Part shown: piece after piece, positions 8,641 to 34,262 of the stretch | Numbering within the stretch: position 1 is the first letter of the stretch | How the letters are laid out: each line of letters opens with the position of its first letter | Assembly: GCF_026965535.1 (NCBI RefSeq) | Contig: NZ_CP114039.1 | Location: 8,163,461 to 8,227,460 of the forward strand | Length of the DNA stretch: 64,000 bases | Direction: 5' to 3' | Source of the DNA: Corallococcus sp. NCRR | Lineage (GTDB): Bacteria > Myxococcota > Myxococcia > Myxococcales > Myxococcaceae | Position numbers and translations under genes: made by a program | The notes under the pieces: generated by a model | What the model was told of the DNA's origin: nothing | What the model saw: only the letters and a program-made list of their open reading frames with translations | Database searches by the model: none

Positions 8641-8690
8641 TTGCGCGTCAGCGCTGACGCTTGCGCGTCAACTGGCGCGCAAGCGCGTCA
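8641..8690. promoter_or_regulatory. 10-mer array C: three TTGCGCGTCA-type units at exact 20-bp phasing (putative sigma-54 enhancer/UAS)
   Basis: TTGCGCGTCA at 8641-8650, TTGCGCGTCA at 8661-8670, aaGCGCGTCA at 8681-8690. Inverted half copies (GCTGACGC, GCGCGC) sit between them, giving the local palindrome GCGCGTCAGCGCTGACGC. The array overlaps the stop codon of the EBP gene. Confidence 0.5.
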
Positions 8691-10322: not shown

Positions 10323-10349
10323 CAAGCCGTCTTCGTCCGAGGCCCCTCC

Positions 10350-15119: not shown

Positions 15120-18100
15120 TCAGACTGGGTTCCTGGGCTGACGCCTGCGAAAGAACAGGGCCAGGGTCACCAAGGCCCAACTGGCAGGCAGCGCAGGGGC
15201 AGTGGCGCAACCCAAACCGAAATGGCTCCCTGGGATCGTGAATGCGTACTCGCTGGAGCGCAAGCTGGTGTTGCCGGCCTCATCCGTGGCGGTGGTCACC
15301 ACCAGGTGGCGGCCTTCCGCCAAATCTGTCGCCAGGGTGAGGTTCCAGTTCCCTGCCTCATCCATCTGGGCTGTTCCCATCAGGAGGCCATCCAGCCACA
15401 CCGTGACGGTGCTCCCCGGCTCCGCCACTCCGCCGAGGGTGGGCTTCCGGGTGTTGGCGACGGCTCCAGGCGAGTGCACCTCTGGCGCCGCGGGCGGCAT
15501 GGTATCCACCGTGAAGGAATGAACGGGTGAGCCCGTGCTGGTATTGCCCCATGCGTCCGTGGCGGTGGCGACCGCCTGATGCAATCCCTCGGACAGCGCC
15601 GCGACTGGGGTGACGAGCCAGCCTCCCGCGGAGTTCGTCTGCGCCTTGCCTGCCTCGACGCCATCCAGCCACACCCTCACGGTGCTACCCATCTCCGCCG
15701 TGCCTCCAATGGCGGGATTCTGGGTGTTGATCAGGGTCCCAGGTGCCATCACTTCGGGTGCCGCGGGCGCCACGGAGTCGACCGTGAAGGCGCAGGCCAT
15801 GGGAGGGCTGACATTGCCCGCGAGGTCGGTCGCAGTGATTTCAGCGGAATGGAGCCCTTGGGGCAGCGCCGTGGCGGAGGGCACACTCCAGGCTCCTGCT
15901 TCGTCCGTCAAGGTCGTCCCAATCCATGTTTCATTGAGATTCACCGTCACCGTACTGCCAGGCTCCGCCGTGCCGCGGTAGGAGGGGCGGGTCTCACGGG
16001 TGGTGGATCCATTGGCTGGAGTAAGGACCACAGGGGCCGCTGGCGGCGTGGTATCCACCGTGAACGTGCGGGTGCTGGATCCGAAAACGATGTTGCCCAC
16101 GGCATCCGTCACCCTGGGGGTCACGGAGTGGGAGCCATCAACCAGCGCCACGGGTTGCGTGAACTCCCATGCTCCCGAGACCTGGGCCACCGTGGCTCCC
16201 ACGAACGTGTCATCCACCCACAGCAGGAGGGTGCTGCCCGGCTCCGCCCTGCCGCTGTAGGTGGGACGGAGATTCGGGGTGATGAAGCCGTTGTCGGGAG
16301 TGAGGATCGCCGGGGCTGCTGGCGGAGTGGCATCCCCCGCGAGTTCGTACAACTCCGCGCTGTCCTTGCGTGAATAGCCTCCAGCGACCAGCACCTTGCC
16401 GGGGGGCAACAGGGTCGCCGTGTGCTTGTAGCGTGGCTCGGCCATGGAGTCCGTCACACTCCACGTCCCCGCAGCCGGGTCGTAGACCTCCGCGCTGGCA
16501 AGAGTACCACCTGCGTTCCTGCCTCCAGCGACCAGCACCTTGCCGAAGGGCAACAACGTCGCCGTATGCTCCTGCCGTGCCGTGGTGAGTGAGCCCGTGG
16601 AACTCCATCCTCCCGTCGCCGGGTCGTAGAGTTCCGCGCTGCCTTGGACACTGCCCCGGCCTCCGCCTCCGGCGACCAGCACCTGGCCGGAGGCCAACAG
16701 CGTCGCAGTGTGTTTATAGCGTGCCGTGGTGAGTGAGCCCGTGGAACTCCATGTTCCCGTAGACGGGTCGTAGAGCTCCGCGATAGCGCTAAAGCTGATT
16801 CCAGCTTTCCAGCCTCCGGCGACCAGCACCTTCCCGGAGTCCAACAGCGTCGCCGTGTGGTTCACGTGTTCGCTGGTCATGGCGCCCGCGGAACTCCACT
16901 TTTCCGTCGCCGGGTCAAAGACCTCCGCGTTGACGCGGAAGACATTCTGGAACCAGCCCCCAGCAACCAGCACCTTGCCGGAGTCCAACAGCGTTGCCGT
17001 GTGTCCTGTGCGTGCTTCGGCCAGGGGAGCCACGGAACGCCATTTTTCTGTCACCGGGTCATAGACCTCCGCGCTGGCGTCGCCCGGGCCCCCGCCTCCG
17101 ACGACCAGCACCTTGCCGGAGTCCAACAGCGTCGCGGTGTGTTCGTAGTGTGCCGTGGGCATGGAGCCCGCGGGACTCCACTGCCCGGTCGTCGGGTCGT
17201 AGAGCTCCGCGCTGACGAGGGCGCCGACACCTGCGCCAAAGCCTCCGGCGACCAGCACCTTGCCGGAGTCCAACGTCGTCGCCGTGTGGCCCCAACGTGT
17301 CGTGGCCATGGAGGCCGTGGGACGCCACTTCCCCGCCGCGGGTTCGTAATCCTCCGTGGCGACGAGCGTACCGTCTGGGATTTCGCCTCCGGCGACCAGC
17401 ACCTTGCCGGAGACCAACAGCGTCGCCGTATGGTGGAAGCGCGCCGAGGCAAGAGAGCCCGTGGGGCTCCAGCCGCCCGTCGCCGGGTCGTAGACCTCCG
17501 CGCTGACAAGGGGGCTTTGGCCCCAGCCACCAGCGACCAGCACCTTGCCGGAGGCCAACAGCGTCGCCGTGAAGTCCGCGCGTGCCCCGGCCATGGAGCC
17601 CGTGAGACTCCATGCTCCCGTCGCCGGGTCGTAGACCTCCGCGTTGGCGCTGTCTGGCCCCCAGCCTCCGGCGACCAACACCTTGCCGGAGGCCAAGAGC
17701 GTCGCTGTGTGGGAGGAGCGTCCCGCGGTCATGGAGCCCGTGAGACGCCACGTCCCCGTTATCGGCTCGTAGACCTCCGCGCTGGCGACCAAGCGGCCTG
17801 GGCCCACATCCCCGCCCGCGACCAGCACCTTGCCGGAGGGGAGAAGCGTCGCCGTGAAGTCAGCGCGCGCCGAACCCATGGGGTCCGTGAGACGCCACGT
17901 CCCCGTCGTCGGGTCGTAGACCTCCGCGCTGACAAGGGGGCTTGGGTCCCTGCCACCAGCGACCAGCACCTTGCCGGAGGGGAGAAGCGTCGCCGTGTGC
18001 TCGTAGCGCGCCGTGGCCATGTCGCCCGTGGGACTCCACTGCCCGGTCGCCGGGTCGTAGACCTCCGCGCTGACGAGGGCGCCGCCATCTGCGCCAATGC

Positions 18101-18485
18101 CTCCGGAGACCAGCACCTTGCCAGAGGGCAAGAGCGTTGCCGTGTGGTGGTAGCGAGCCGCGGCCATGGCGCCCGTGGAACTCCACCTCTTCGTCGTCGG
18201 GTCGTAGACCTCCGCGCTGGTGCTGTCTGCCCCGCTGCCGCCGGAGACCAGCACCTTGCCGGAGGGCAACAGCGTCGCCGTGTGGTGGGTGCGTGCCACG
18301 GCCATCGCATCCCTGGAGTTCCACAGTCCGGGGGTCGTGGTTTGGAACGCTTGGGTTTCAGACGCCTTGCGACGCGGTTCTTTGTCGCGGTGCTGTGACA
18401 CCTCACCGCACGCCAGTGACAACAGCGCGGTTCCCAGGAACAGCAGCGCAATCACTTCCAATTTCGCACTTGGAACAGGTGCCAT
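15120..18485 (-). CDS. Kelch-repeat + Ig-like-repeat lipoprotein with MYXO-CTERM (paralog of 11289..15029, convergent)
   Basis: 1121 aa. N-terminal signal MAPVPSAKLEVIALLFLGTALLSLACG with lipobox LSLAC. ~12 Kelch-like repeats (ARY/HHTATLL.SGKVLVAGG). 5 Ig-like units (TPPAAP...GTAEPGSTV.V.L.....G..........ATD.AGN). C-terminal SHFGLGCATAPALPASWALVTLALFFRRRQPRNPV is MYXO-CTERM. GAGGG 6 nt upstream of the ATG, only 10 bp after the stop of the CHAT-STAND gene. Confidence 0.8.
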   Translation of the reverse strand: MAPVPSAKLEVIALLFLGTALLSLACGEVSQHRDKEPRRKASETQAFQTTTPGLWNSRDAMAVARTHHTATLLPSGKVLVSGGSGADSTSAEVYDPTTKRWSSTGAMAAARYHHTATLLPSGKVLVSGGIGADGGALVSAEVYDPATGQWSPTGDMATARYEHTATLLPSGKVLVAGGRDPSPLVSAEVYDPTTGTWRLTDPMGSARADFTATLLPSGKVLVAGGDVGPGRLVASAEVYEPITGTWRLTGSMTAGRSSHTATLLASGKVLVAGGWGPDSANAEVYDPATGAWSLTGSMAGARADFTATLLASGKVLVAGGWGQSPLVSAEVYDPATGGWSPTGSLASARFHHTATLLVSGKVLVAGGEIPDGTLVATEDYEPAAGKWRPTASMATTRWGHTATTLDSGKVLVAGGFGAGVGALVSAELYDPTTGQWSPAGSMPTAHYEHTATLLDSGKVLVVGGGGPGDASAEVYDPVTEKWRSVAPLAEARTGHTATLLDSGKVLVAGGWFQNVFRVNAEVFDPATEKWSSAGAMTSEHVNHTATLLDSGKVLVAGGWKAGISFSAIAELYDPSTGTWSSTGSLTTARYKHTATLLASGQVLVAGGGGRGSVQGSAELYDPATGGWSSTGSLTTARQEHTATLLPFGKVLVAGGRNAGGTLASAEVYDPAAGTWSVTDSMAEPRYKHTATLLPPGKVLVAGGYSRKDSAELYELAGDATPPAAPAILTPDNGFITPNLRPTYSGRAEPGSTLLLWVDDTFVGATVAQVSGAWEFTQPVALVDGSHSVTPRVTDAVGNIVFGSSTRTFTVDTTPPAAPVVLTPANGSTTRETRPSYRGTAEPGSTVTVNLNETWIGTTLTDEAGAWSVPSATALPQGLHSAEITATDLAGNVSPPMACAFTVDSVAPAAPEVMAPGTLINTQNPAIGGTAEMGSTVRVWLDGVEAGKAQTNSAGGWLVTPVAALSEGLHQAVATATDAWGNTSTGSPVHSFTVDTMPPAAPEVHSPGAVANTRKPTLGGVAEPGSTVTVWLDGLLMGTAQMDEAGNWNLTLATDLAEGRHLVVTTATDEAGNTSLRSSEYAFTIPGSHFGLGCATAPALPASWALVTLALFFRRRQPRNPV

Positions 18486-18495: not shown

Positions 18496-21400
18496 TCACG
18501 ATTTGAGCTGTTGCCGTCCCCACGTCTGCTCTTCGCGGGCGTGGGCCTCGCGGGCTTCGTCGAGCCGCTCGCCGAGGTAGCGCTGGCGCTGCCGGACCTC
18601 CAGGCTCGCGCTGGTCAATTGGCGAAGCTGCTCCCGCAGTGAGTTGCCCCCCAGCTTCCACACGCGCGCGCTGCCATCGGTGGCGGCGATGGCCAGCATG
18701 TCTCCTCCGGGGCTGAAGACCGCTCCTGTCACGCGGTCCCCATTGCCGCTGAGCACCAGGGATTCACCGCTCCCGTCCGTGGGCCACACCTGCACGGTGC
18801 CATCTCCGGCGGCGTTCACCACCCACGTGCCTCGGGGATGAAACCGGGCGGTGTGTCCCCGGACCATGACGGCCTCTCCCCTCCCCTCGGCGGACCACAC
18901 GCGCACCGTCCGGTCCTGGGAGGCGGTCAACACGTGGGCCCCGTCCTGGCTGAACTCCACGCTCACCAGCGCCTGCTCATGCCCGCGGAGCACCATCGGC
19001 TCACCCCGGCCGTCCGCGCGCCACACCCGCGCCGTCCCATCCCAGGAGGCCGTCGCCACGCGCTCACCGTCCGGACTGAACACCGCCGCCACCACCCGGC
19101 CCGAGTGGCCCTGGAGCACCACCGGCTCGCCCTGTCCGTCCGCGCGCCACACCCGCGCCGTCCCGTCATCCGAGGCCGTCACCACCCGCTGGCCGTCCGG
19201 GCTGAACACCGCGGTCCGGAGGAACTGCGTGTGCCCCTGGAGCACCACGGGCTCGCCCTGGCCGTCCGCGCGCCACACCCGCGCTGTCGCATCCCACGAG
19301 GCCGTCACCACCCGTTCACCCTCCGGGCTGAACGCCGCCGCCACCACCCGGCCCGTGTGGCCCTGGAGGACCACGTGCTCGCCCGGACCGTCCGCGCTCC
19401 ACACGCGCGCCGTTCCGTCATCCGAGGCCGTCACCACCCGCTGCCCGTCCGGGCTGAACGCCACCGTCCGGACCTCCGCCCGGTGCCCCTTGAACTCCAC
19501 CAGGTCCATGCCGCTGCGCAGGCACCAGAGCCGCGCCGTGCCATCCGCGTGGCCGGTCGCCAGGAGATCCTCCCAGGGGCTGAATGCCAGGGATTGCACT
19601 GTCCCCGCGCGGCGCTGGAGCGTGAGCGCCCGCGGCTGTGTCCGCCAGCGCCACACGCGCGCGGTGCCATCGCGGGAGGCCGTCACCACCTGCTCCCCGT
19701 CCGAGCTGAAGCTCGCGGAGAACACCTCATCCGTGTGTCCCCGCAGCTCCGCGGACAGGCCCCCTCCTTCCGTGCTTCGCACCCTCGCGGTGCCATCCCG
19801 GGAGGCCGTCAGCACCCAACGCCCATCCGGGCTGAAGGCCACCGAGAGGATCTCCCCCCCGTGCCCCGCGAGGCGCATCGCCCCGCCCTTCCCGTCCGCC
19901 CGCCACAGGCGGACCATCCCATCCGCGTGCGCGCTCACCACCAGCCCTCCATCCGGGCTGAAGGCCACCGCGTTGACGAAGCCGGAGTCGCTGCGCAGCA
20001 GGATGGGATCGTCCCGGCCCTCCACGCGCCAGATGCGCACCGTGCCATCCACCGAGGCCGTGGCCACCTGCGTCCCATTCGGACTGAAGACCGCGGCGCG
20101 CAGCTCGCCCGGATGGGCCAGCACCGCCAACACGCCCCGTCCATCCGTGTGCCACACCCTCGCCGTTCCATCGCGCGAGGCCGTCACCACCCGCTCGCCG
20201 GTTGAATCGAAGGTCGCGGCCACCAGGCCCTGTGAGTGGCCCTGGAGCACGATGGGCAGGCCCGTCCCATCCGCCCGCCGCACGCGCGCCGTCCCATCCC
20301 GCGAGGCGGTCACCACCCGTTGACCATCCGGGCTGAACGCCACCATCACCACCTCCGCCAGGTGCCCCGTCAGCACCTCCGGCCCGCCTCCGCCCTCCAC
20401 GGGCCACACGTGCGCGGTCCGATCCGCGGAGCCCATCACCACCCGCTGCCCGTCCGGGCTGAACGCCACGGCCAGCACCTCTCCGCCTTGACCTTCGAGC
20501 ACCTTCGGCAGGCCCGTTCCATCCGCTCGCCACACGCGCGCGGTCCCATCGCTCGATGCTGTCGCCACCCACCGGCCGTCCGCGCTGAGCGTCGCGGCTC
20601 GAACCTGCCCCCGATGTCCTCGCAACACCGCCGAGGCGATGGGCTGCTGGAACACCTCCAGGGCCGTCTGCGTCCAGGACAGGTGCTGCTCGGGCTCGCG
20701 CACCTCCAGCAACACCAACAGGGCGGCCGTGGGATCCTCTCGCCTCAACTTGTCGGCGACGATCAACCGCGCGAAGTCCTGCAATTGCTCCTGCTGCCGG
20801 CGAGCCTCCCGCGCCAGGGTGCTGGCCATCTCCTGACTCGCGTCGATGAACAACCGCATCTGCTCATCCAGCTCACCCGGATGGGTTTGACGCAGCTCCA
20901 ATGCGTCCTCCAGATGCCGGCCCCGCAGGAGACGCTCCCCGGAGGGTGCGGTCCGCGGGTGCGACCGCCAGGCCTCCGCCCCCGTGCGCAGCTCGTTCCG
21001 CTTGCGCTGGAGCGCCTGCGCCTCGCGGATCCATTCACCCAGGGGGCTCCAGTGGCGCAGCAGCGCTTCGTGTGCCACCTCGATGAAGACCTCGCCCCCG
21101 TCCCCCTTTCCAAGCACCAGGACCCGGCCCTCCAACAGCCGGCCCAGCGCGACATCGAAAGCGCGGCGCGCCTCCACGTCCCGGGGCTGGATGCGCGCCC
21201 GGCCCACGCGCTGCGAGGTGAACGGCGCCGCGCCGTCGCGCATGTCGACCAGCTCCACGAACAGCTGGCGCACCTGGTGCCGCTCCTCTTCCCCCAAGCC
21301 CAGGTACAGCCGGTCCAGTTCCTGGGCCAGCGCCCCGGCCACTCCGTCCAGGGCCTGATAGGCGCCGTGCTTGAGCCACCGGCCATCCCGCAGCCGCCAC

Positions 21401-23175
21401 AGCCGCTCCAGCGTGTGCGCCAGCAGTGGCAGTCCCCCGGGTTGGCGCTCCACGTCCTGGAGGAGCCGCTCCGTGAGCCCCACCTCCAGCAGGATGCCCT
21501 GTTGCCACGAGGGACGTTCGATGGCCTCGCGCAGCTCGACCGCCGTCATCTCCGGAACCAGGAGCAGGCGCTCTCCCTCGAAGAGCACCGCGTCCAGCCG
21601 GGGGCCGTCCGCGCCCAGGCGGACCTCGGCGCAACGAGCGAGGTAATCCATCCGCAACGTCGCGAGCACCACCGTGCCCCGCTCGCGGGCCTGCGAGGCG
21701 TCCCACAGCGCGCGCATCAACTCCGCGCGCGCCTCCTCCTCCAGCAGGGTGAACGCCTCATCCAGCGGATCCACCACCACGAGCCGGTGCTTGCCCGGAG
21801 AAGCCTTCACGGCGCGGACCGTCTCCAGCGTCCCCGCGTCCCCCGCGCGCAACCGGGTGATCTCCCAACGCTCAGGCGGCAACGTGGGCAGCAGCCCGGC
21901 CCGCAGCAGCGAGGACTTGCCGCTGCCGGAGACCCCGGCCATGACCTGGAGCGCCGGAAGCTGTCCCGCCGCGGCGGCCTCCAACCGCTGGCGCAGCGTC
22001 TGCCGCAGCGGCTCGCGTCCGAAGAAGCGTCGTTCATCGCCGGGCTCGAAGGGCCGCAGGCCGCAATACGGCTGGAAGATGAAGGGACGCAGGTCCGGTC
22101 CATCTCCCGCGCGGGCGTAGAGTTGGAGCGAACAGCCATCCATCCGCGCCCCTTCGAGCCGCAGCGCCCCGCGAGCCACGGCCAGTGACTGCTCCAGGGA
22201 AGCGTGGCGTCCGAGCAGCTCGCCATAGAGCGCGCGGGTGAAGATGACGGACCCCACCTTGGAGAAAGGCAGACGCGAGGCGACCACCGCGGAGAGGCCC
22301 GCGCGGTGCAGCTCGCGAGCAGGGCTGCCCAGGTGGTTGCCGGGGAGCCCCGAGTCGCCGCCACGGCAGGCGCACAGCACGACCATGCGCAGACGCCCCG
22401 CATGCGGTTCGAGCGCCGCGCGCAACGAGGCCGCATCCACCACGTCCAGCTCCCCCTCCCGGCGCGAGGAGTTCCAGGCGAGTCCATACGCCCCGGGCTC
22501 CGATGGAACGCCATGGCACAAGAGGTGGAGCGAGGCGATGGGCTCCTCGCTGGACCGCAGCGCCTGTTCGAGCGAAGCGAGGCTCACGTGGGGAAGCACG
22601 TCCCGTTTCGGATCAAAGGCATACCCCGCCCTGGCGCAGGCCTCTGTCAGGGCGCGCTGGTGCGCCGCCGCGGGCACATCCCCTGCCCACGCGAAGAGGA
22701 TGCGGCCTCCAGCGGGCGGCGGAGAGGGCCGCGGTGGGTGGGTCTTCGAGCCGGGGCGCTCGTAGCAGACGGTGCAGCCCTCCAGGTCGCTGAGCGCCTG
22801 GCCCGTGCTCTCCAGCGCGAGCAACTCCCACGGGAGCACGCACAGCTCCGCGGGCTCCAACCGCAGGGTGAGCCGCACCGTCCCGCCGTCCGACAGCGCC
22901 TGCCGCAATCGCTGCTCATCCTGCGCCCAGCCCAGCGGCATCAGGAACGCGCGCAGCAGCTCCCCCAACCGCTGGGCCGTGTTGGGGCTGGGCCGGCTGG
23001 AGCCCAGGTTGGCCAGGTCGTCCAGTGCGTGGTTCCAGGGGAAGGAGGCCCGCTTGGAGGTGCCCTCCTCTTCCAATCGCAGATAGTCCCGGGGCTGGAA
23101 GAGGAAGCGATCCGCGTCGCGCGTGCGCTCGCCGGAGACGAGGTGGAGCGTGAGTTCCAGGGGACCGAAGGCCAT
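18496..23175 (-). CDS. CHAT (caspase-like) - STAND NTPase - WD40 repeat protein
   Basis: 1559 aa. CHAT-type dyad: His in SLHLLCHGV (aa ~221), Cys in RMVVLCACRGG (aa ~269). Linker PYCGLRPFEPGDERRFFGRE, then Walker A GVSGSGKSSLLRAGLLP (aa ~414), Walker B LVVVDPLDEAF, and a long helical (winged-helix/HETHS-like) arm. From aa ~830, ~14 WD40 repeats (GH...V..A.FS.DG..V.TAS.DGTARVW). Confidence 0.85.
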   Translation of the reverse strand: MAFGPLELTLHLVSGERTRDADRFLFQPRDYLRLEEEGTSKRASFPWNHALDDLANLGSSRPSPNTAQRLGELLRAFLMPLGWAQDEQRLRQALSDGGTVRLTLRLEPAELCVLPWELLALESTGQALSDLEGCTVCYERPGSKTHPPRPSPPPAGGRILFAWAGDVPAAAHQRALTEACARAGYAFDPKRDVLPHVSLASLEQALRSSEEPIASLHLLCHGVPSEPGAYGLAWNSSRREGELDVVDAASLRAALEPHAGRLRMVVLCACRGGDSGLPGNHLGSPARELHRAGLSAVVASRLPFSKVGSVIFTRALYGELLGRHASLEQSLAVARGALRLEGARMDGCSLQLYARAGDGPDLRPFIFQPYCGLRPFEPGDERRFFGREPLRQTLRQRLEAAAAGQLPALQVMAGVSGSGKSSLLRAGLLPTLPPERWEITRLRAGDAGTLETVRAVKASPGKHRLVVVDPLDEAFTLLEEEARAELMRALWDASQARERGTVVLATLRMDYLARCAEVRLGADGPRLDAVLFEGERLLLVPEMTAVELREAIERPSWQQGILLEVGLTERLLQDVERQPGGLPLLAHTLERLWRLRDGRWLKHGAYQALDGVAGALAQELDRLYLGLGEEERHQVRQLFVELVDMRDGAAPFTSQRVGRARIQPRDVEARRAFDVALGRLLEGRVLVLGKGDGGEVFIEVAHEALLRHWSPLGEWIREAQALQRKRNELRTGAEAWRSHPRTAPSGERLLRGRHLEDALELRQTHPGELDEQMRLFIDASQEMASTLAREARRQQEQLQDFARLIVADKLRREDPTAALLVLLEVREPEQHLSWTQTALEVFQQPIASAVLRGHRGQVRAATLSADGRWVATASSDGTARVWRADGTGLPKVLEGQGGEVLAVAFSPDGQRVVMGSADRTAHVWPVEGGGGPEVLTGHLAEVVMVAFSPDGQRVVTASRDGTARVRRADGTGLPIVLQGHSQGLVAATFDSTGERVVTASRDGTARVWHTDGRGVLAVLAHPGELRAAVFSPNGTQVATASVDGTVRIWRVEGRDDPILLRSDSGFVNAVAFSPDGGLVVSAHADGMVRLWRADGKGGAMRLAGHGGEILSVAFSPDGRWVLTASRDGTARVRSTEGGGLSAELRGHTDEVFSASFSSDGEQVVTASRDGTARVWRWRTQPRALTLQRRAGTVQSLAFSPWEDLLATGHADGTARLWCLRSGMDLVEFKGHRAEVRTVAFSPDGQRVVTASDDGTARVWSADGPGEHVVLQGHTGRVVAAAFSPEGERVVTASWDATARVWRADGQGEPVVLQGHTQFLRTAVFSPDGQRVVTASDDGTARVWRADGQGEPVVLQGHSGRVVAAVFSPDGERVATASWDGTARVWRADGRGEPMVLRGHEQALVSVEFSQDGAHVLTASQDRTVRVWSAEGRGEAVMVRGHTARFHPRGTWVVNAAGDGTVQVWPTDGSGESLVLSGNGDRVTGAVFSPGGDMLAIAATDGSARVWKLGGNSLREQLRQLTSASLEVRQRQRYLGERLDEAREAHAREEQTWGRQQLKS

Positions 23176-23193
23176 GGCGGGTCCGCTCCCGGG

Positions 23194-24738
23194 TCAGGCC
23201 ACGAGCAACCGCTCCCGGAAGTAGCGGCGGTACAGCTCACAGCGCGGCAGCACGGCGGTCCCCTCCTGGCGCACCAGCCCCGCGCTCCTCAGACGGATGA
23301 ACACATCTTCGCTCGTACAGGCGCCGCGCTGGAGCACCTCGCGAAGCCCGGCCTTGAGCTGTGATTGGCTGCTCAGCCGGAAGAGCAGGTTGCGCAGGTG
23401 GTCTCCGAACGGCCCCCGGTCCTCCGCCACCTGGGAGAAGAGCTCCGCCACGCCCAGGCTGCCGCTGGCCACCAGGTACAGGGCCTTGCGGACGAGGTAG
23501 GGATGCCCTCCCAACAGGGTGAAGAGCTCCTGGGCCTGCTGCGCGCTCAACGGCGAGCCATGCCGCTGGTTGAGGTCCACCACCTGCGCCGCGGCGAAGT
23601 CGTCCAGCTCCACGGTCTGCCCCACGTTGAAGGGCGACTGCGTCATGTTCTTGATGAAGAGGAAGGGCTCCGTCGAGGTGACCAGGACGATGCTGAGCTT
23701 CTTCCACACCGGCGTGGTGGGCAGCGCGCGGTTGTTGTGCCAGCTGCGCAGCATGCCGAAGAAGTCCGTGCCGAAGGGAATCTCGAAGAGGGTCTCCACT
23801 TCGTCCAATCCCAGCACCAGCGGCGCATCCAACGACCGCAGGATGTGGCCGCTCATGTAAAGGCCGCAGCGCTGGCTGCTGCCCATGGGCTTCTGCCAGT
23901 ACGCCTCCACCTGGTCGGTGAGGCCGAGTTGCTCCCCCAGCGAGCTGCAGAAGCGCTGGAAGAAGAGATCCGGATTGCGGAGCGAGCTGGAGTCGAACTC
24001 CTGGAGCGACAGGTAGGCCACGCGCTTGCCCGCGGTGAGCGCGCCCGCCATGCCCCGCATGAGCAGGGAGCTCTTGCCCATCTGCCGGGCGCCCTTGATG
24101 GTGATGGTCGCCCCCTGCTTGTGCGCGACTGCCTTCATCACCGTCGCGTCCGCACCACGCACGACATAGAAGGCCGACTGGGTGTCCATGGCGCCCTCCA
24201 GGGGCTCGTCCAGTTCGAGCGGTGCCGAAGGAAGCGGCGGCCGCAGCGGAGGGGACGCGGGTTCGGCGGGTGGCACGTCGCGGGAGGCCGGCTTCGTGGC
24301 GGGCAGCGCGGATTCGGGCAGCGCGGATCCGCTCATGGCCCGGGCGAGCTGTTCGAGCAGCCGCGGGGTGTCCTCGGGCCCCTCCCAGAGCGCCCAGTTG
24401 ATGGGGCCCAGGTAGCTGCTCAGGGGCGATGGAAGCCGTTCGTGGTACGCGACCCGGATGGGGAGGAGGACGGGCTTGCCGTACTGCGCATGCTGCTGAT
24501 GCGCCAGCTCGATCTCCATGCGCGCCATCTCGCTGTTGACGGAGAACGGCGACAGCAGCGTGATGAAGAAGTCCGCCTGGCGGATCTCCGCGCCAATCCG
24601 CTCCGCCCACCGTTCACCCACCACCATGGAGGTGTCGATGAACACCTCGTGGGACGCCTGGAGCGCCCGGTAGAGGGCATTGGAGAGGTCCTGGTCCGGC
24701 GTGACGTCGCGCTTGTAACTGATGAAGACACGGGCCAT
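23194..24738 (-). CDS. TIR domain + AAA-like NTPase protein
   Basis: 514 aa from ATG at 24736-24738. N-terminal MARVFISYKRDVTPDQDLSNALYRAL...VFIDTSMVVGERW...NSEMARMEIELA is a TIR fold (FISYxR, catalytic-Glu-like WxxxE context). Central KGARQMGKSSLL P-loop and DEVETLFEIPFGTDFFGMLRSWHN (AAA-like / PF14516-type). The track ORF extends 40 codons further 5', which is rejected because TIR domains are N-terminal. Confidence 0.8.
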   Translation of the reverse strand: MARVFISYKRDVTPDQDLSNALYRALQASHEVFIDTSMVVGERWAERIGAEIRQADFFITLLSPFSVNSEMARMEIELAHQQHAQYGKPVLLPIRVAYHERLPSPLSSYLGPINWALWEGPEDTPRLLEQLARAMSGSALPESALPATKPASRDVPPAEPASPPLRPPLPSAPLELDEPLEGAMDTQSAFYVVRGADATVMKAVAHKQGATITIKGARQMGKSSLLMRGMAGALTAGKRVAYLSLQEFDSSSLRNPDLFFQRFCSSLGEQLGLTDQVEAYWQKPMGSSQRCGLYMSGHILRSLDAPLVLGLDEVETLFEIPFGTDFFGMLRSWHNNRALPTTPVWKKLSIVLVTSTEPFLFIKNMTQSPFNVGQTVELDDFAAAQVVDLNQRHGSPLSAQQAQELFTLLGGHPYLVRKALYLVASGSLGVAELFSQVAEDRGPFGDHLRNLLFRLSSQSQLKAGLREVLQRGACTSEDVFIRLRSAGLVRQEGTAVLPRCELYRRYFRERLLVA

Positions 24739-24752
24739 GGGGCTCTTTCCAG

Positions 24753-27700
24753 TCACTGGGTCAGGGGCAGGCGCGAACACGTTTGTCGATAGGGAGCGAC
24801 CTCGCGCACATCCGCGGGCCACTCCTCGGGCTTCAGGTTGCGGGGTAACAACAGACACGCGAGCTCAATCCAATCCGAGGCCCGGACAGGCCACAGGCGC
24901 GCGACACCGTCATCGCTGGCGGTGGCCACGCGGGTGCCATCCGGGCTGAAGGCCACCGCGCGCACCCGCTTCTCGACGGGCAGGCTCGCCAGCCGGCGGC
25001 CGGTGGCGGCCTCCCACAGGCGCGCCGAGCCATCCTCGCTGGCGGTGATCAGCAGCCCGCCATCCGGGCTGAAGGCCACGGAGGTGACCGTGTTGTCATG
25101 CTGCAATTGCTGCCGCTCCTGGCCCGTGGCGACGTCCCAGACGCGCGCCTTGCTGTCCTCACTGGCGGTCACCAGACTCAGGCCATCCGGGCTGAAGGCC
25201 AGCGCGGTGACCACCAGGCCATGCTGGAGGGGACTTCCCAGCGGCTCGCCGGTGGCCACGCTCCACAACCGCGCGGTGTTGTCATCACCGGCCGTGGCGA
25301 GACGGGTCCCGTCCGGACTGAAGGCCACGATGCGCGCGGCATGCTTCAGTGGCGGGACCCGGCTCGCGCCGGAGCGCGTATCCCAGAGCCGGATGAGGCC
25401 CTCGTCGCCGGACGTGGCCAGCACCCCGCCGTCCGGGCTGAAGGCCACCGAGTCAACGCCCTCCGCATGCTCCAACCGCACCCGCTCGTGGCCCGTGGCC
25501 ACCTCCCAGAGGCGCGCGGTGTGGTCCTCGCTGGCGGTGGCCACGAGCGTGCCATCCGGGCTGAAGGCCACGTCCATGACCCTGCCGGCGTGAGGCAGGC
25601 GCATCAGCAGCGCGCCATCCGACACGCGCCACACGCGGGCGACCTTGTCCGCACCGGCGGTGACCACGCGCGTGCCGTCCGGGCTGAAGGCGACGTCCAG
25701 GACCCGGCCGTCGTGCACCAGGGGTGGCCCCGAAGGTTCGCCCGTGTCCGCGCGCCAGAGCGATGCGGCCTTGCCTTCCGTGGCGGTCGCCAGCAGCCGG
25801 CCGTCCGGACTGAAGGCCAGTTGGGTGACGGCCGTCTCATGGGGAAGCTGGACGAGCGGAGGACCGGGAGCGAGGGCCCAGAGGAGCGCGAGTCCACCCT
25901 CGGTGGCGGTCACCAGTTGCCTGCCATCCGGGCTGAACGCCACGGCGTTGACGCGGCTCTTGTGGGGCAGGAGCACCTGCTGCTTCCCCGTGGCCGCGTT
26001 CCACAGGCGGACGGTCTTGTCCTCGCTGGCGGTGGCCACGAGCGCGCCGTCCGGGCTGAAGGCCACGGAGGTGACGGCCTTGTCATGTCGCAGGGCCATC
26101 AACTCCCGGCCGGAGGCGAGCTCCCAGAGCCGCGCGAGCTTGTCCTCGCCGGCCGTGGCCACGAGCGCACCGTCCGGGCTGACGGCCACCGACATGATGC
26201 GGGTCTTGTGTTGCAGGATCTTCCCCACCCGCTTGCCGGTCTCCGCGTCCCACGTGCGCGCCGCCTTGTCCGCGCCCGCGGTGATGAGCGTCCTGCCATC
26301 CGGGCTGAAGGCCACTGACAGGACGCGGCTGCGGTGTTCGAGCGGCTCACCGAGGGCCAAGCCCGTGGCGGTGCTCCAGATGCGCACGAACCGGTCCTCG
26401 CCAGCCGTGGCCACGCGGGTGCCGTCCGGGCTGAAGGCCACGGCGTTGATGCCGCCGTCGTGGCGCGCGGAGGTCATCCGGGACGTCCAGGTCCGCGTGT
26501 CCCACAGGCGCGTGGTGCCATCGTCACTGGCGGTGGCGGCCATCCGGCCGTCGCGGCTGAAGGCCACCGCGGTGACCACGTCGTCATGGCGAAGCACCTG
26601 CCGCTGATAGCCGGCGTAGCCCATGGGGATCTCCCAGAGGCGCGCGGTGTGGTCCTCCCCCGCGGTGAGGACCTGGGTCCCATCCGGGCTGAAGGCGACC
26701 GCCAGGACGTTGCCCTCGTGCTCCATCCGGGTGGTCAGGGGGTGGCGAAGCTGGACGAGTGAGCGGATGAGGGAGTCCATGGCCTCGGGAGAGCCATGGA
26801 GCCGCACCGCCTCCGTGGAGAGCGCGGTGCTGACCGTCAGGTTCGACGAGGCACTGCGGAGCGTGGCGTCCGCCTTGTTCATGAAGACGTAGGAGGCCGC
26901 CTCGCGCAGCCGCAGCGCGGTCTCGTCTTTCGCCTGGGCGATCTCCCGCTCCGCCTGCGCCTTCTTCTCCTGCGCCTGCCGCGCCTCCGCCTGCAGCCAG
27001 CGCGCCTCCTCGCGGAAGCGTTCGGCCTCCTGCCTGGACTTCTGGGCCTCCGCCCGCGCGTTCCTCTCGATGCGCGTGGCCTCTTCCTGCGCGGCGGTCG
27101 CGCGCGCCACGATGGTCTCCGCCTCCTTCTCCGCCAGGGACCGGGCCTTCTCCGCGCCGTCCCGGAGCCGCTGGGCGCGGTCCCGCTCCGTGACGGCCGC
27201 ATTGCGAGCACGCTCGGTCTCCGCGAGCCGCGCGTACAGGAGCAGCGAGGCGGGCAGCAGCACGATGAAGCCCGCGATCACCAATCCCAGCGCGGCCAGC
27301 CGGACTACGCGCCAGTCCACCGGCAGTTGGTTGCGCGCCCACGGCACGGTGAAGACGCGCTCGTAGATGGAGTTTCGCACCCGCAGCAGGTCACCCTCGC
27401 GGCGCACCACGCCCGACAGCTTGAGGTGTGACTTCACCAGCGAGCGTTCTTCGTCGAGCACCCGCCGGCCGCGCCGGATGTCCTGGTAGGTCCTGAGGAC
27501 GCGCTCCGGATCCGGCGCGCGGCGGGTCAGCATGTCGCGGACGAAGACCAGGTTGTTGTCCTGGAAGCTGCGCTCCGCGAAGAAGGTGCGCTCCATCACC
27601 TGCTGCGTGGACTCGCGCGTCCAGAGCGCGCCGTCCGTCAGCCGGTAGTGGTCCACCAGGGCCTGACACAGCCGCTGCGTGAGATAGGGATGGCCGCCGG

Positions 27701-28427
27701 TCCATTCCAGCACCCACTCCAGGACCTGCAGCCCCGTCTCGATCGAGTCCCCCAGCCCGCGCGCCAGCGGCTCGGCTTCCTCCAGGGCGAAGTCCGTCAA
27801 CTCCACCCGCTGCCCCAGGTTGAAGGGCGTGCGCTTCTCGTCCTGGATGAGGTCTCCCGGGGTCGCCACGCCCACGAGCACGAACGAGATGCGCAGCAGC
27901 TCCGGGTTGCTGGCCCGGGCGTTGTAGAGGTAGCGGATGGCCGCGTAGAAGTCGTCCGTGAAGCCCATCCCCAGCGTGGTGTCGATCTCGTCCACGAAGA
28001 TGGTCACGCGCTCCCGGACCTCGACGACCACCACTTCTTCCAGGAAGCGGGTCAGCCGCTGCACGGGGCCTTGTCCGGCATGGCGGCTCCACCACTCGGA
28101 CGCGTCCGTGTGCAGCTCGAGCTGCTCCTGGATGACGACCAGCAGTCCCACGTACCACTGCTCCGCCGTCACCTGTTTGCCAATGCGGGTCAGGTCGATG
28201 ATGACCGAGCGGATGCCCTCTTCGTAGAGCTGCTCCGCAGTGCGAACCATCAGGCTGGACTTGCCCATCTGCCGGGCCGTCAGCACGAACGCGAAGGTCC
28301 CCGCCCGGCACAGCTCGACCATCTCCTGGTCCGCGCGCCGGGCCAGGTACACACCGCCGCCCGCCTGCACCGTGCCACCGACGGTGAAGAGGCTCGAATC
28401 GTTCAAGCTTGGGATGTTGTCGAGCAC
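24753..28427 (-). CDS. AAA-like NTPase - TM segment - coiled coil - WD40 repeat protein
   Basis: 1224 aa, GTG start at 28427 (in-frame TGA 7 codons upstream). N-terminal domain homologous to the middle domain of the TIR gene (LTARQMGKSSLMVR, FVDEIDTTLGMGFTDDFYAAIRYLYNAR). Hydrophobic helix LAALGLVIAGFIVLLPASLLLY. ~110-aa Glu/Arg/Ala-rich coiled coil (ERARNAAVTERDRAQRLRDGAEKAR...). ~15 WD40 repeats to the C-terminus. Confidence 0.8.
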   Translation of the reverse strand: MLDNIPSLNDSSLFTVGGTVQAGGGVYLARRADQEMVELCRAGTFAFVLTARQMGKSSLMVRTAEQLYEEGIRSVIIDLTRIGKQVTAEQWYVGLLVVIQEQLELHTDASEWWSRHAGQGPVQRLTRFLEEVVVVEVRERVTIFVDEIDTTLGMGFTDDFYAAIRYLYNARASNPELLRISFVLVGVATPGDLIQDEKRTPFNLGQRVELTDFALEEAEPLARGLGDSIETGLQVLEWVLEWTGGHPYLTQRLCQALVDHYRLTDGALWTRESTQQVMERTFFAERSFQDNNLVFVRDMLTRRAPDPERVLRTYQDIRRGRRVLDEERSLVKSHLKLSGVVRREGDLLRVRNSIYERVFTVPWARNQLPVDWRVVRLAALGLVIAGFIVLLPASLLLYARLAETERARNAAVTERDRAQRLRDGAEKARSLAEKEAETIVARATAAQEEATRIERNARAEAQKSRQEAERFREEARWLQAEARQAQEKKAQAEREIAQAKDETALRLREAASYVFMNKADATLRSASSNLTVSTALSTEAVRLHGSPEAMDSLIRSLVQLRHPLTTRMEHEGNVLAVAFSPDGTQVLTAGEDHTARLWEIPMGYAGYQRQVLRHDDVVTAVAFSRDGRMAATASDDGTTRLWDTRTWTSRMTSARHDGGINAVAFSPDGTRVATAGEDRFVRIWSTATGLALGEPLEHRSRVLSVAFSPDGRTLITAGADKAARTWDAETGKRVGKILQHKTRIMSVAVSPDGALVATAGEDKLARLWELASGRELMALRHDKAVTSVAFSPDGALVATASEDKTVRLWNAATGKQQVLLPHKSRVNAVAFSPDGRQLVTATEGGLALLWALAPGPPLVQLPHETAVTQLAFSPDGRLLATATEGKAASLWRADTGEPSGPPLVHDGRVLDVAFSPDGTRVVTAGADKVARVWRVSDGALLMRLPHAGRVMDVAFSPDGTLVATASEDHTARLWEVATGHERVRLEHAEGVDSVAFSPDGGVLATSGDEGLIRLWDTRSGASRVPPLKHAARIVAFSPDGTRLATAGDDNTARLWSVATGEPLGSPLQHGLVVTALAFSPDGLSLVTASEDSKARVWDVATGQERQQLQHDNTVTSVAFSPDGGLLITASEDGSARLWEAATGRRLASLPVEKRVRAVAFSPDGTRVATASDDGVARLWPVRASDWIELACLLLPRNLKPEEWPADVREVAPYRQTCSRLPLTQ

Positions 28428-28457: not shown

Positions 28458-28473
28458 AGCAAGCTCTGGGCCA
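28458..28473 (-). promoter_or_regulatory. candidate sigma-54 promoter of the NTPase/TIR/CHAT operon (TGGCCC-N5-TTGCT)
   Basis: Minus-strand reading cTGGCCCagagcTTGCTctt, with GG and GC 10 nt apart. ~30 nt to GTG, with AAGGGG Shine-Dalgarno between. Array A lies 48 bp upstream. Confidence 0.5.
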
Positions 28474-28520: not shown

Positions 28521-28556
28521 GCTGACGCGCAAATGACGCGTCAGTTGCGCGTCAGC
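28521..28556. promoter_or_regulatory. 10-mer array A: perfect 36-bp palindrome of three 10-mers at 11-bp phasing (putative enhancer/UAS)
   Basis: GCTGACGCGCAA-a-TGACGCGTCA-g-TTGCGCGTCAGC. Outer units are reverse complements of each other and the centre unit is self-palindromic (contains an ACGCGT core). Confidence 0.55.
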
Positions 28557-28581: not shown

Positions 28582-30135
28582 CTACGGGAGAGGCGGCGCG
28601 GGGATGGAGCGGTCCGAAGTGGGCTCGCCCAATAGCAAAAGCAGTTCCGCTCGCCGGTTCTCGCCCCGTCCTGCCTGTGTGCCATTGGAGCCCAAAGGCC
28701 GACGTGCCCCGAGGCCTCGGGCTTCCAACCGGTGCGCCGGGACGCCCTTGCGCAGCAGGTAGTCACGCACCGCCTCCGCGCGGGCCAGGGACAGGCGCTG
28801 GTTGGAGGCGGAGGAACCTTCCGCGTCCGTGTGCCCTTCAATGACGACGCGCTCCACTTCTGGATGCTCGATGAGCACCCGAGCGACCTGATCCAGCACG
28901 CGCGAGCGGTCCGGCAGCGTCGTCACGCCGACCTCGAAGAAGACCTGACCGTGGAGGATGAGGCGCTCGCGGGTCAGGGTGACGAGCGGGTCACCCGTCT
29001 CGGGGCAACCGCCATGCTCCCGGGTCCCCTTCTCGTGGATGCAGGCGTCGAGCACGTCCACGACGCCGTCCCCATCCGTGTCGGTCTCGGTGGCTGACGG
29101 CTCCGGCGTGGGAGGCTCGGGAGGTGGGGGTTCGGAAGGCGTGGGCTCGGGCTCGAGCTGGGGCTCGGCGGGAGCACGCGGCAGGCCCGTGACGAGCTCG
29201 TAGACGATGTTCTCCGGGGGCGGACGCGGCGGCTTGTCGAAGAGCAACAGGGCTACTCCCGCGAGCACCCGGAAGCGGGGCACCCCGGGCTCCGAGCCCA
29301 GCCCCGCCCCCCCCATGGCGAAGAACTCCCACGGACGGACGGGGGCGTAGCGCAGACCGCCCAGCAGCTCGCCGCTGACGCGCTGCTGCCGAAAGGAGTA
29401 GGCGCCCAACGCGGACACCTCCGCGCGGAAGGCGTACCCCACCGTCAGCCCCGCGCCTGCCCGCAGCTCGTTGCCCACGCCGTTAAGGCCCTCCACGCTG
29501 GAGTCGGACACCGACCGACGAAGGAGCACACCCAGCTCCAGTGCTGGAGCCACGGCCCCCCACCGCTTGCCCATCATGACGCGGCCCTGGCCGCGGACGC
29601 CCCGGTCACGGGCAAGCGCGCCCGAACCGCCCACGGGCAACCGCATGTCCAGGTCGAGCGCCAGGTGGAAGGCCTCGGGAGCGGAGGTCCCCAGCAAGCC
29701 GAACCGGGCCGCGAGCCGTGGCGCCCCGAGCCCGCTGTGTGAAGGCGATGCGATGGACAGCGAGGTGCTCAGGTCCGCGCCGCTCTGGTGGATGACGCCC
29801 GGAAGCTGGGCCTGGAGCTCCAACCAGGGCAGCACGCCAACGGCCAGCGACACCAGTCCGGTGGTCCGGGACAGGACGAGCGAGGGCTCCAGCAAGCCGT
29901 TCGCGATCCTCAAAGGGGAGTGCTGGTAGTGCGCCATCAAGGAGATGCGCAGCGCTCCGGGCGCAAGCAACTCACCATTCCCGAGCGCCAGGGGCCCCAG
30001 TCCCGGATTGGGGTCCAGGCGCTCCAGGGAGAACGTGGGCAGGGCCGTGGCGTCCTGGGCCCGCGCGGGGGTGGCGAGCAGCAACAGCCCCAGCGCGGCC
30101 GCGCCACGCGCACATCGGTGCCAGACCGGACCCAT
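28582..30135 (-). CDS. OmpA-family protein (C-terminal OmpA/peptidoglycan-binding domain), Pro-rich linker
   Basis: Signal peptide MGPVWHRCARGAAALGLLLLATPARAQ (ATG 30133-30135; alternative ATG 30153 or in-frame GTG 30228 inherited from the duplicated leader). Pro/Glu linker PEPTPSEPPPPEPPTPEP, thrombospondin-type TDTDGDGVVD. C-terminal OmpA signature VVIEGHTDAEGSSASNQRLSLARAEAVRDYL. Confidence 0.8.
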   Translation of the reverse strand: MGPVWHRCARGAAALGLLLLATPARAQDATALPTFSLERLDPNPGLGPLALGNGELLAPGALRISLMAHYQHSPLRIANGLLEPSLVLSRTTGLVSLAVGVLPWLELQAQLPGVIHQSGADLSTSLSIASPSHSGLGAPRLAARFGLLGTSAPEAFHLALDLDMRLPVGGSGALARDRGVRGQGRVMMGKRWGAVAPALELGVLLRRSVSDSSVEGLNGVGNELRAGAGLTVGYAFRAEVSALGAYSFRQQRVSGELLGGLRYAPVRPWEFFAMGGAGLGSEPGVPRFRVLAGVALLLFDKPPRPPPENIVYELVTGLPRAPAEPQLEPEPTPSEPPPPEPPTPEPSATETDTDGDGVVDVLDACIHEKGTREHGGCPETGDPLVTLTRERLILHGQVFFEVGVTTLPDRSRVLDQVARVLIEHPEVERVVIEGHTDAEGSSASNQRLSLARAEAVRDYLLRKGVPAHRLEARGLGARRPLGSNGTQAGRGENRRAELLLLLGEPTSDRSIPAPPLP

Positions 30136-30261
30136 CCGTGCATCTTCCGTCATGTCGCGCTCGGGGCGAAGGGGAATGGCGGGGTGCGGCATCCGGCGGG
30201 TCGCAGCCAGACGGATGTCGTTGAGCACGCCGTCAGAGCCGCCTCGTCCGTGGGCTCCAAG

Positions 30262-30277
30262 AGCACACTCCGGGCCA
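30262..30277 (-). promoter_or_regulatory. candidate sigma-54 promoter for the ompA-like gene (TGGCCC-N5-GTGCT)
   Basis: Minus-strand reading cTGGCCCggagtGTGCTctt. Same position within repeat B as the gene-12 promoter within repeat A. Confidence 0.45.
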
Positions 30278-30325: not shown

Positions 30326-30361
30326 GCTGATGCGCAACTGACGCGTCAGTTGCGTGTCAGC
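30326..30361. promoter_or_regulatory. 10-mer array B (near-palindrome, 11-bp phasing) in divergent intergenic region
   Basis: GCTGATGCGCAA-c-TGACGCGTCA-g-TTGCGTGTCAGC, with 2 mismatches relative to perfect two-fold symmetry. Flanked by a minus-strand GG-N10-GC ~50 bp to the left and a plus-strand TGGCAC-N5-GTGCA ~68 bp to the right. Confidence 0.55.
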
Positions 30362-30429: not shown

Positions 30430-30445
30430 TGGCACCCTGGGTGCA
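30430..30445 (+). promoter_or_regulatory. candidate sigma-54 promoter for the large surface lipoprotein gene (TGGCAC-N5-GTGCA)
   Basis: tTGGCACcctggGTGCAaag has a perfect -24 hexamer and conserved -12 GC. ~60 nt to the ATG at 30505. Confidence 0.55.
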
Positions 30446-30504
30446 AAGCAATGCCTGGCCGCCTGCTCCACAGGCGATGCCCAAACCCTAGCGGAGCGCC
30501 CCGG

Positions 30505-34035: not shown

Positions 34036-34262
34036 TGAAGTTCAGGGAGGCCATTGGGGGCAGTGTGGCCGCCAGCTTGAATGGGGCCGTCATGCTCATG
34101 CCTATGACGTGGGTAAGCATCGCCGCAGGGCTCGAAAGGCGACGTCAATTGCGGTTTGAATCATGCGGTCGCTTTTTACTGTCCCTCCGTTAGAGGGAGG
34201 GTAGCTCGCCAGAGTCAGATCTTGTCATTCCGAATCGCTGCGCCACTCAAAAGGAGACACCC

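Follow-up and report, generated by a model that had tools for sequence, protein, structure and literature searches.

What is the function of a myxobacterial operon that spreads TIR, caspase-like CHAT, STAND-type nucleoside triphosphatase (NTPase) and WD40 domains over three adjacent genes, and which of its parts belong together? We address this question for a locus of Corallococcus sp. NCRR (Myxococcaceae; assembly GCF_026965535.1, contig NZ_CP114039.1), using a window of 64,000 nucleotides (nt; positions 8,163,461 to 8,227,460 of the forward strand) and naming the three genes, in the direction of transcription, A, B and C (Table 1). The conserved unit is the A/B pair, whose two proteins carry paralogous AAA_35 NTPases, rather than the A/B/C trio. 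We assign a probability of about 0.5 to the reading that the operon encodes machinery for regulated cell death or for signalling of an immune type, with a split STAND-like receptor at its core. A more specific proposal, which we advance tentatively, is that the AAA_35 pair acts as a transmembrane 'split NLR', in which an extracytoplasmic sensor (WD40 here, CHASE2 or PAN in relatives), borne on a helical stalk of ~17-20 nm, signals across the membrane to a TIR-bearing, often caspase-bearing partner.

The AAA_35 pair and its division of labour

The domains read from the translations in the first-pass annotation (TIR, CHAT with a His-Cys dyad, STAND, AAA-like NTPase, WD40, transmembrane helix and coiled coil) were borne out, with Pfam matches far above their cut-offs. 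A carries AAA_35 (PF14516; residues 18-359, 102.6 bits against a cut-off of 27) and 15 WD40 matches (7e-140), in agreement with the earlier estimate and predicted to form two beta-propellers. B joins TIR_2 (PF13676; residues 4-120, 67.6 against 28 bits), which has the flavodoxin-like TIR fold, to a second AAA_35 (residues 181-509, 346.7 against 27 bits). C combines an N-terminal CHAT (PF12770; residues 90-339, 57 against 24 bits), nSTAND1 (PF20703; residues 369-741, 263.7 against 27.1 bits) and 15 C-terminal WD40 matches, where about 14 had been counted, and has the architecture of effector, nucleotide-binding oligomerization domain (NOD) and repeats. Searching the operon proteins with NCBIfam profiles returned nothing above the cut-offs.

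At the level of sequence, all catalytic motifs of the three proteins are intact. Walker A (RQxGKSS, 52-58) and Walker B (DEID, 146-149) of A are kept in at least 95% of 73 homologs, and E75 (within SxxSEMxxxEI), Walker A (GARQMGKS) and Walker B (DE312-313) of B are the same in all of 20 homologs from four phyla. In C, the dyad H221-G222 and C270, the P-loop GxGKSS417-422 and Walker B D469 are invariant in 20 homologs; the histidine had been placed correctly at 221, while the cysteine, given as 269, is residue 270. From its motif, and not from a computed superposition, we take E75 of B to be the equivalent of SARM1 E642, that is, the putative catalytic glutamate of NAD+-cleaving TIRs. Identity between A and B is only ~26%; both have the family-specific motifs T/SPFNxG and GHPYL, the latter kept across the 73 A homologs.

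No structure for AAA_35 was found by sequence search of the PDB, which returned P-loop matches to RecA only. Comparison of the module with known proteins gave values of 17.2 (~285 residues aligned) for the archaeal ATPase PAB2304 (2qen), 16.1 for the archaeal ATPase SSO1545 (2fna), 15.2 for the TIR-NLR WRR4A, 13-15 for ORC/Cdc6 proteins, 13.4-13.6 for plant resistosomes, 13.2 for MalT, 13.1 for CED-4 and 12.2 for SeAvs3; AAA_35 is therefore probably a STAND-like, or STAND/ORC-like, AAA+ module. A close relationship between the NTPase of C and those of A and B was considered and rejected, the profile-profile alignment of AAA_35 with nSTAND1 covering the P-loop only. We take PAB2304 and SSO1545 to be members of the 'MNS' STAND clade (Leipe et al. 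2004). An 'MNS clade (Npun2340/2341 family)' is named by Kaur et al. 2021 (PMC8195603). The two archaeal ATPases are 12-14% identical to AAA_35 and lack the TIR, transmembrane helix and WD40 repeats of the A/B module. Npun2340 and Npun2341, two consecutive Nostoc genes, may be the pair described here.

The pairing of A and B emerged when one genome for each of 185,579 species was scanned with a degenerate pattern: 413 stretches encode a B relative, and the 80 best of them, taken with 10 kb on either side, were searched by tblastn with the separate domains. An A-type AAA_35 paralog (49-65% identity to residues 1-385 of A, mostly 55-65%) adjoins the B-type gene in 76 of the 80 loci, and the other four loci stop at or near a contig end. 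They belong to Cyanobacteria (mainly Nostocales), Acidobacteriota (Blastocatellia), Chloroflexota and Myxococcota, and outside Myxococcota B precedes A, the two genes touching or overlapping; a few Nostoc have them in divergent orientation. Clustering all neighbouring open reading frames (ORFs) across these phyla gave no further conserved family that could be a third partner. The trio, which had been proposed as the module and is kept together in all seven Myxococcota loci, thus describes Myxococcota well and fails as an evolutionary unit, since the A/B pair spans at least four phyla and C is added to it.

Full-length identity of B-type proteins between Myxococcota and the other phyla is unusually high (51-59%), the presence of the B family is patchy within Myxococcaceae and Archangiaceae, and relatives lie on cyanobacterial, Abditibacteriota and Chlorohelix plasmids, which together suggest horizontal spread of the B family under strong constraint. 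The operon is apparently absent from M. xanthus DK1622. The family is large: an exhaustive HMMER search of 1.84 billion cluster representatives recovered TIR-AAA_35 relatives in 2219 clusters (50% identity) at E<=1e-30, and in almost all of the best 150 clusters the TIR-AAA_35 unit stands at the very C-terminus, with 0-1000 residues in front. One metagenomic protein (P0241, 693 residues) holds two AAA_35 stretches and could be either a fusion of an A/B-like pair or the product of an assembly error or frameshift.

Effectors and sensors are distributed consistently between the two partners. In the B family the chain finishes at the NTPase, effectors are N-terminal and a sensor is never present; among 66 diverse representatives TIR_2 was found in 65, with extra N-terminal CHAT (8), protein kinase (5), Trypsin_2 (3) or nucleotide cyclase (Guanylate_cyc; 2) domains, and individual examples begin with EAD7, an adaptor domain of the conflict systems of Kaur/Aravind (PMC7159879, PMC8195603). 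A-type proteins lack an effector, apart from an Oscillochloris protein with AAA_35 and CHAT, and have a C-terminal sensor-like region, WD40 in most. In several Nostoc relatives this slot holds CHASE2 (E 1e-58 to 1e-68), flanked by additional transmembrane helices, and elsewhere PAN_4 with WD40, PEGA/CarboxypepD_reg, pentapeptide repeats or a short unrecognised domain. A classical STAND protein carries effector, NOD and sensor in one chain. Here the effector and sensor halves reside on separate proteins, each with an active NOD, and we therefore infer, as the simplest reading, that the two NODs co-assemble into a heteromer. Taken as a whole, the family keeps its NTPase core constant and exchanges effectors or EAD adaptors, has repeat sensors and is enriched in multicellular lineages, the combination described for conflict systems by Kaur et al. 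2020/2021; its loci are mostly from Nostocales, Myxococcota and Chloroflexota, but from Blastocatellia too.

Predicted topology of A and the recruitment of C

Directly after its NTPase, A has a hydrophobic segment (LAALGLVIAGFIVLLPASLLL, residues ~375-399, Kyte-Doolittle 2.6), and a segment of 21-25 residues occupies this place in 65 of 73 A-type proteins. Summed over these 65, the 15 residues on its N-terminal side contain 204 K/R and 98 D/E (net +106) and the 15 on its C-terminal side 149 K/R and 170 D/E (net -21), a positive-inside bias by which the NTPase would be cytoplasmic and the C-terminus external. An AlphaFold2 model of A(1-560), with a mean predicted local distance difference test score of 80, comprises the AAA_35 core with a terminal winged-helix-like hairpin, a helix at 372-421 that includes the membrane helix, and an uninterrupted 116-residue helix (429-544); at 0.15 nm per residue the latter would form a stalk of ~17 nm, which, we speculate, could cover much of the periplasm. 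CHASE2 is defined as an extracytoplasmic sensory domain, and PAN and PEGA-type domains are typical of secreted or surface proteins. The charge bias, the presence of these domains in the same slot and the modelled helix lead us to predict that A is probably a single-pass receptor (N-in/C-out) with periplasmic WD40 propellers. A had been called membrane-anchored: the helix stands, whereas the idea of a mere anchor does not fit a conserved helix that predicts the WD40 repeats of A to lie outside the cytoplasm.

C joins the pair in Myxococcota only, as an addition: its orthologs (73-89% identical by domain) adjoin B in 7 of 7 Myxococcota loci and in 0 of 73 others. Proteins of the CHAT-nSTAND1-(WD40/TPR/kinase) type gave more than 1100 matches, mainly myxobacterial, and because paralogs in Pyxidicoccus and Sorangium are stand-alone genes, C appears to be an autonomous protein type that was recruited to the pair. 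In Pyxidicoccus xibeiensis (L082:2173-5645) such a stand-alone paralog adjoins genes for a sigma factor of the extracytoplasmic function (ECF) type and a TPR-CHAT protein, an arrangement that resembles DdvS/DdvA of M. xanthus and may be a hint of co-localisation between CHAT-based envelope sensors and CHAT-STAND proteins.

CHAT is attached to the pair in three further ways: as CHAT-TIR-AAA_35 fusions in many cyanobacteria and one KSB1 bacterium, as a C-terminal CHAT on an A-type AAA_35 protein without a transmembrane helix (Oscillochloris sp., L075:3946-7158), and in a CHAT-nSTAND1-kinase-like-AAA_35 protein that has two different NTPase modules in one chain and no A-type neighbour (Paraliomyxa miuraensis, L081:8001-11978). 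Judged from these architectures, an accidental recruitment of C is unlikely. Two couplings are conceivable: C could co-assemble with the pair and be activated by proximity, which is favoured by the existence of direct CHAT-TIR fusions, or, by analogy, a nucleotide made by the TIR could activate the protease. No signal-binding domain was recognised in C.

Operon layout, regulation and neighbouring genes

A, B and C follow each other on the minus strand (Table 1) with spacers of 14 nt (ctGGAAAGAGcccc) and 18 nt (cccGGGAGcggacccgcc), each containing a purine-rich ribosome-binding site. B starts at the ATG at 24738 (MARVFISYKRD), in agreement with the N-termini of all homologs, and a longer ORF from a GTG at 24858 was rejected as an over-extension. 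Neither a sigma-70-like promoter nor a terminator-like hairpin was found at the junctions, so that, given the short spacers, co-transcription of the three genes is a reasonable inference. The operon organisation proposed in the first-pass annotation is upheld, as is the tight spacing, although its values of 15 and 19 bp are each one too high. G+C content is ~70% throughout the operon region.

Table 1 Features of the operon and its surroundings (positions within the 64,000-nt window)
Feature	Position	Strand	Description
Gene A	24753..28427	minus	1224 aa, GTG start; predicted membrane-spanning sensor subunit
A, AAA_35	27351-28376	minus
A, transmembrane helix	27231-27305	minus
A, long single helix	26796-27230	minus
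A, WD40	24852-26747	minus
Gene B	23194..24738	minus	514 aa, ATG start; predicted effector subunit
B, TIR	24379-24729	minus	followed by a disordered linker
B, AAA_35	23212-24198	minus
Gene C	18496..23175	minus	1559 aa; caspase-like CHAT, nSTAND1, WD40
C, CHAT	22159-22908	minus
C, nSTAND1	20953-22071	minus
C, WD40	18676-20628	minus
Sigma-54-like -24/-12 element	28458..28473	minus	TGGCCCAGAGCTTGCT; 31 nt upstream of the GTG of A
TGACGCG/CGCGTCA half-site array	28521..28556	minus	GCTGACGCGCAA-CTGACGCGTCAT-TTGCGCGTCAGC; candidate activator sites
Sigma-54 enhancer-binding protein gene	8688..10361	minus	Sigma54_activat and HTH_8 (Pfam, 198 bits); unassigned ~187-aa N-terminal domain
Kelch/Ig-repeat lipoprotein gene	15120..18485	minus	starts 10 nt downstream of C; lipobox LSLAC
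OmpA-like gene	28582..30228	minus	upstream of A
1099-aa gene	30451..33750	plus

The operon had also been described as lying behind a sigma-54 promoter with a dedicated enhancer array. A sigma-70-like promoter was sought upstream of A and not found, and the sigma-54-like element TGGCCCAGAGCTTGCT has one mismatch to TGGCAC-N5-TTGCW (GG-N10-GC type). By itself this element is weak, because matches with two mismatches are as frequent in the window (32) as in shuffled sequence (31), and its position is the sole argument for it. The array consists of four half-sites at -127 to -102 from the start of A, with a 12-bp perfect inverted repeat around the palindrome TGACGCGTCA; lying 26 nt past the stop of the OmpA-like gene, it may be the terminator hairpin of that gene. 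Direct alignment of the regions upstream of A orthologs was uninformative, and the motif scan used in its place found similar arrays, again with a sigma-54-like element, in two of five loci, Hyalangium (L003) and an Archangiaceae metagenome-assembled genome (L004), and none in L001, L002 and L005. Element and array exist, with TGACGCGTCA common to two of the five ortholog loci, and are not universally conserved; sigma-54 control of the operon is plausible. A gene ~8 kb beyond C encodes an enhancer-binding protein that is a weak candidate for the regulator; in L002 its ortholog (80% identity) lies 1.4 kb downstream of C. Further exact copies of TGACGCGTCA lie at 30339-30348 and 4390-4399, the former in the divergent region between the OmpA-like and the 1099-aa gene, close to sigma-54-like elements at 30262-30277 (minus) and 30430-30445 (plus), and one regulator may control A and the genes around the palindrome at 30339.

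Two neighbours were considered as members of the module and ruled out. The Kelch/Ig-repeat lipoprotein gene may be co-transcribed with C in the Corallococcus genome, no terminator having been found between them; its homologs near the operon in L001 and L003 are on the opposite strand, so neither strand nor position is kept. The upstream OmpA-like gene is not conserved. Together with 11289-15029 (plus), the Kelch/Ig gene forms a convergent couple of giant paralogs that combine Kelch with tandem Ig-like repeats, an N-terminal signal or lipoprotein sequence and a C-terminal hydrophobic tail. At ~34000-36400 the G+C content falls to 51%, compared with ~70% for the genome, and this stretch is probably recently acquired foreign DNA; its 712-aa ORF (34263..36401, plus) has no Pfam or PADLOC match. 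Genes for large Ser/Thr protein kinases are present at 4696-8259 (plus; with TPR repeats) and 46510-49425 (minus), the kinase domain of the latter, and no other part of it, matching PADLOC models for kinases, PD-T4-6 among them; they reflect the typical abundance of kinases in myxobacteria and are not evidence of defence. A Wzy_C/O-antigen ligase family membrane protein is encoded at 52219-53589 (minus).

Function and relation to known systems

If the operon is a cell-death or immune-type machine, A would be its sensor half, with the AAA_35 NTPase in the cytoplasm and one transmembrane helix and a stalk holding two WD40 propellers in the periplasm; B would be the effector half, a paralogous AAA_35 NTPase with a TIR and no sensor; and C would be a self-contained caspase-like CHAT-nSTAND1-WD40 protein. 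A would be changed by a cue from the envelope, whether attachment or injection by a phage, contact with foreign or kin cells, or damage to the envelope, upon which the NTPase modules of A and B would co-oligomerise in an NTP-dependent manner and the clustered TIRs would be activated to cleave NAD+, either depleting it or producing a signal. At the same time or as a later step, C would be switched on, either because it is recruited or through a product of the TIRs (the route known from type IV Thoeris), and would then cleave cellular proteins, leading to growth arrest or suicide. The A/B heteromer, the topology, the trigger, the enzymatic outputs and the phenotype are the parts of this model that we infer. 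Intact TIR and caspase-like sites, NOD switches, swappable effectors with an EAD adaptor and the patchy, partly plasmid-borne distribution argue for a role in conflict or cell death, and enrichment in multicellular lineages is a pattern of conflict systems (PMC7159879, PMC8195603).

Several observations weigh against this reading. Compared with four ortholog loci, the WD40 regions are 60-62% (A) and 76-79% (C) identical and the NTPase and effector domains 74-87%, that is, the sensors are conserved and not hypervariable as expected of a sensor in an arms race. In about 8 of the 73 A-type homologs no clear transmembrane segment is present, it is unusual for canonical WD40 propellers to lie in the periplasm, and the N-in/C-out topology of A is itself a prediction. 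The CHAT-nSTAND1 paralogs stand alone, so C might act independently of A and B. No relatives were found in phage genomes, and a PADLOC scan of ten neighbouring ORFs of the window detected no defence genes, only generic OmpA/MotB and kinase domains. In PADLOC-DB v2, which covers Avs, bNACHT, TIR-NLR, Thoeris and other systems, no system model matches the operon proteins, in keeping with the earlier failure to match the arrangement to a described defence system. Matches were confined to parts: C to SAVED_CHAT (6.4e-34), a WD40-driven match to HEAT-ARM_XIII, and B to ThsB (E 2e-4, 18 bits); the AAA_35 modules matched no model except that of B, marginally, to the candidate PDC-S01 (E 0.0096). Given sensors that are conserved, an extracytoplasmic ligand that is itself conserved would fit better than a fast-evolving cytoplasmic target; damage to the envelope, a structure on the surface, a signal from kin or prey, or a conserved component of phage at entry would be candidates.

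The same data bear on other explanations. We consider it unlikely that the operon is a conventional Avs- or bNACHT-like abortive-infection system that senses in the cytoplasm, with WD40 repeats that capture phage proteins within the cell and the hydrophobic segment of A only tethering the complex to the inner membrane. Antiviral STANDs typically follow the same effector-NTPase-repeat logic and use TIR and caspase-like effectors, caspase-STAND-WD40 proteins have been noted among bacterial STANDs (PMC13581612 / 10.64898/2026.01.04.697583), the distribution is patchy and includes plasmids, and C, which has no transmembrane helix, must sense in the cytoplasm. However, the mid-protein helix of 21-25 residues divides A into halves on either side of the membrane, with N-in/C-out charges, its sensor slot is filled by CHASE2, PAN_4 or PEGA in relatives, PADLOC gives no Avs or NACHT match, and the window neighbours form no defence island. 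A non-immune role in social or developmental signalling, with an envelope or contact receptor that steers developmental lysis, kin discrimination or stress responses and with TIR and CHAT as signalling enzymes, would account for the concentration of the pair in filamentous and social lineages (Nostocales, Myxococcota, Chloroflexota), the strong conservation of NTPase and effector domains across myxobacterial genera (74-89%), and the predicted extracytoplasmic sensors. It would also suit possible control by sigma-54 and an enhancer-binding protein, a mode of regulation used heavily in Myxococcus development. Yet the pair is also common in Blastocatellia, which to our knowledge are not multicellular, and it is patchy within Myxococcaceae and Archangiaceae. 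The N-terminal effectors of the B family are moreover exchanged (CHAT, trypsin, kinase, cyclase, EAD7), a hallmark of conflict systems (PMC7159879), and on balance we regard a purely social or developmental role as improbable. That A, B and C are independent NLR-like genes that merely cluster, with no A/B heteromer and no coupling to C, deserves hardly any credence: stand-alone CHAT-nSTAND1 paralogs and the Paraliomyxa fusion protein would be expected, but so close an association is not, with A and B adjacent in nearly all loci of four phyla (often as overlapping or abutting ORFs), an effector on B only and a sensor on A only, short spacers without terminators, and a trio kept in every Myxococcota locus.

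Bacterial STAND and NLR-like immunity is currently understood as the recognition of phage proteins in the cytoplasm by single polypeptides. If the topology and the heteromer are correct, bacterial NLR-type switches would also monitor the envelope or the outside, and bacteria would have sensor/helper pairs like those of plant NLRs. If the split-NLR proposal holds, the pair would be the first prokaryotic NLR-like system for extracytoplasmic cues, operationally a Toll-like receptor made from two STAND proteins. A coupling of TIR and CHAT would be a second, architecture-independent example of a TIR-caspase axis beside type IV Thoeris, and the coupling of TIR, CHAT and NOD bears on how such modules were assembled before eukaryotic innate immunity. 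Should the module serve the social behaviour of myxobacteria, it would offer a rare handle on regulated cell death in development. In any case it belongs to a cross-phylum and architecturally distinctive family. Its building blocks are known families, the association of TIR or caspase with STAND and WD40 in multicellular bacteria is an established theme, and C is an ordinary member of it. Literature on PF14516/AAA_35 yielded only false positives, and we did not find the A/B pair described, including in Kaur et al. 2020/2021 and recent systematic screens. What appears from sequence comparison to be new is an obligate pair of AAA_35 paralogs with split roles, a transmembrane helix with an extracytoplasmic slot, and the recurrent attachment of CHAT.

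Among described systems, bacterial caspase-STAND-WD40 proteins, the Apaf-1/CED-4 apoptosome logic and the nSTAND1 proteins known from multicellular bacteria (PMC8195603; PMC13581612) share with C the layout of effector, NOD and beta-propeller; here C sits in an operon with a TIR-AAA_35 and an AAA_35-transmembrane-WD40 protein, whereas its paralogs occur alone. The comparison with Avs and bNACHT made in the first-pass annotation captures the effector-NTPase-repeat logic and misses the predicted extracytoplasmic sensing. Unlike Avs1-5+ and bNACHT proteins, which have a TPR-like sensor, the pair matches no Avs or NACHT profile, places effector and sensor on two paralogous NTPases, and uses WD40 or CHASE2 in a sensor subunit predicted to span the membrane. 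In type IV Thoeris, a caspase-like protease is activated by N7-cADPR, the product of a TIR (bioRxiv 10.1101/2024.10.24.620036, PMC13243611); there, as here, a TIR and a caspase-family protease are encoded together, and a route tested in that system is thus available by which B could act on C. B and C differ from it in carrying STAND-type NTPases, and C in its repeat sensor; ThsB matches B weakly, and the cyanobacterial CHAT-TIR fusions argue for activation by proximity and not by a diffusible signal.

Plant NLR pairs and TIR-NLR resistosomes (such as RPS4/RRS1 and WRR4A) use NB-ARC where the pair uses AAA_35, and here one partner is predicted to be a membrane protein in a putative heteromer. 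With respect to Toll-like and IL-1 receptors, the TIR of our system is on a separate polypeptide that would be recruited through the paralogous NTPases, and WD40 or CHASE2 takes the place of leucine-rich repeats as the sensor; we found no evidence for common descent of the whole receptor. The nearest parallel within myxobacteria is topological: DdvA of M. xanthus, an anti-sigma factor that spans the membrane and has its TPR-CHAT region in the periplasm, controls antiphage defence (PMC11506125). Its output is an ECF sigma factor (DdvS), not an NTPase and TIR, and it has no homology to A, but, as we propose for A, it is a single-pass membrane protein whose periplasmic domain has been proposed to receive the signal for cytoplasmic antiphage systems.

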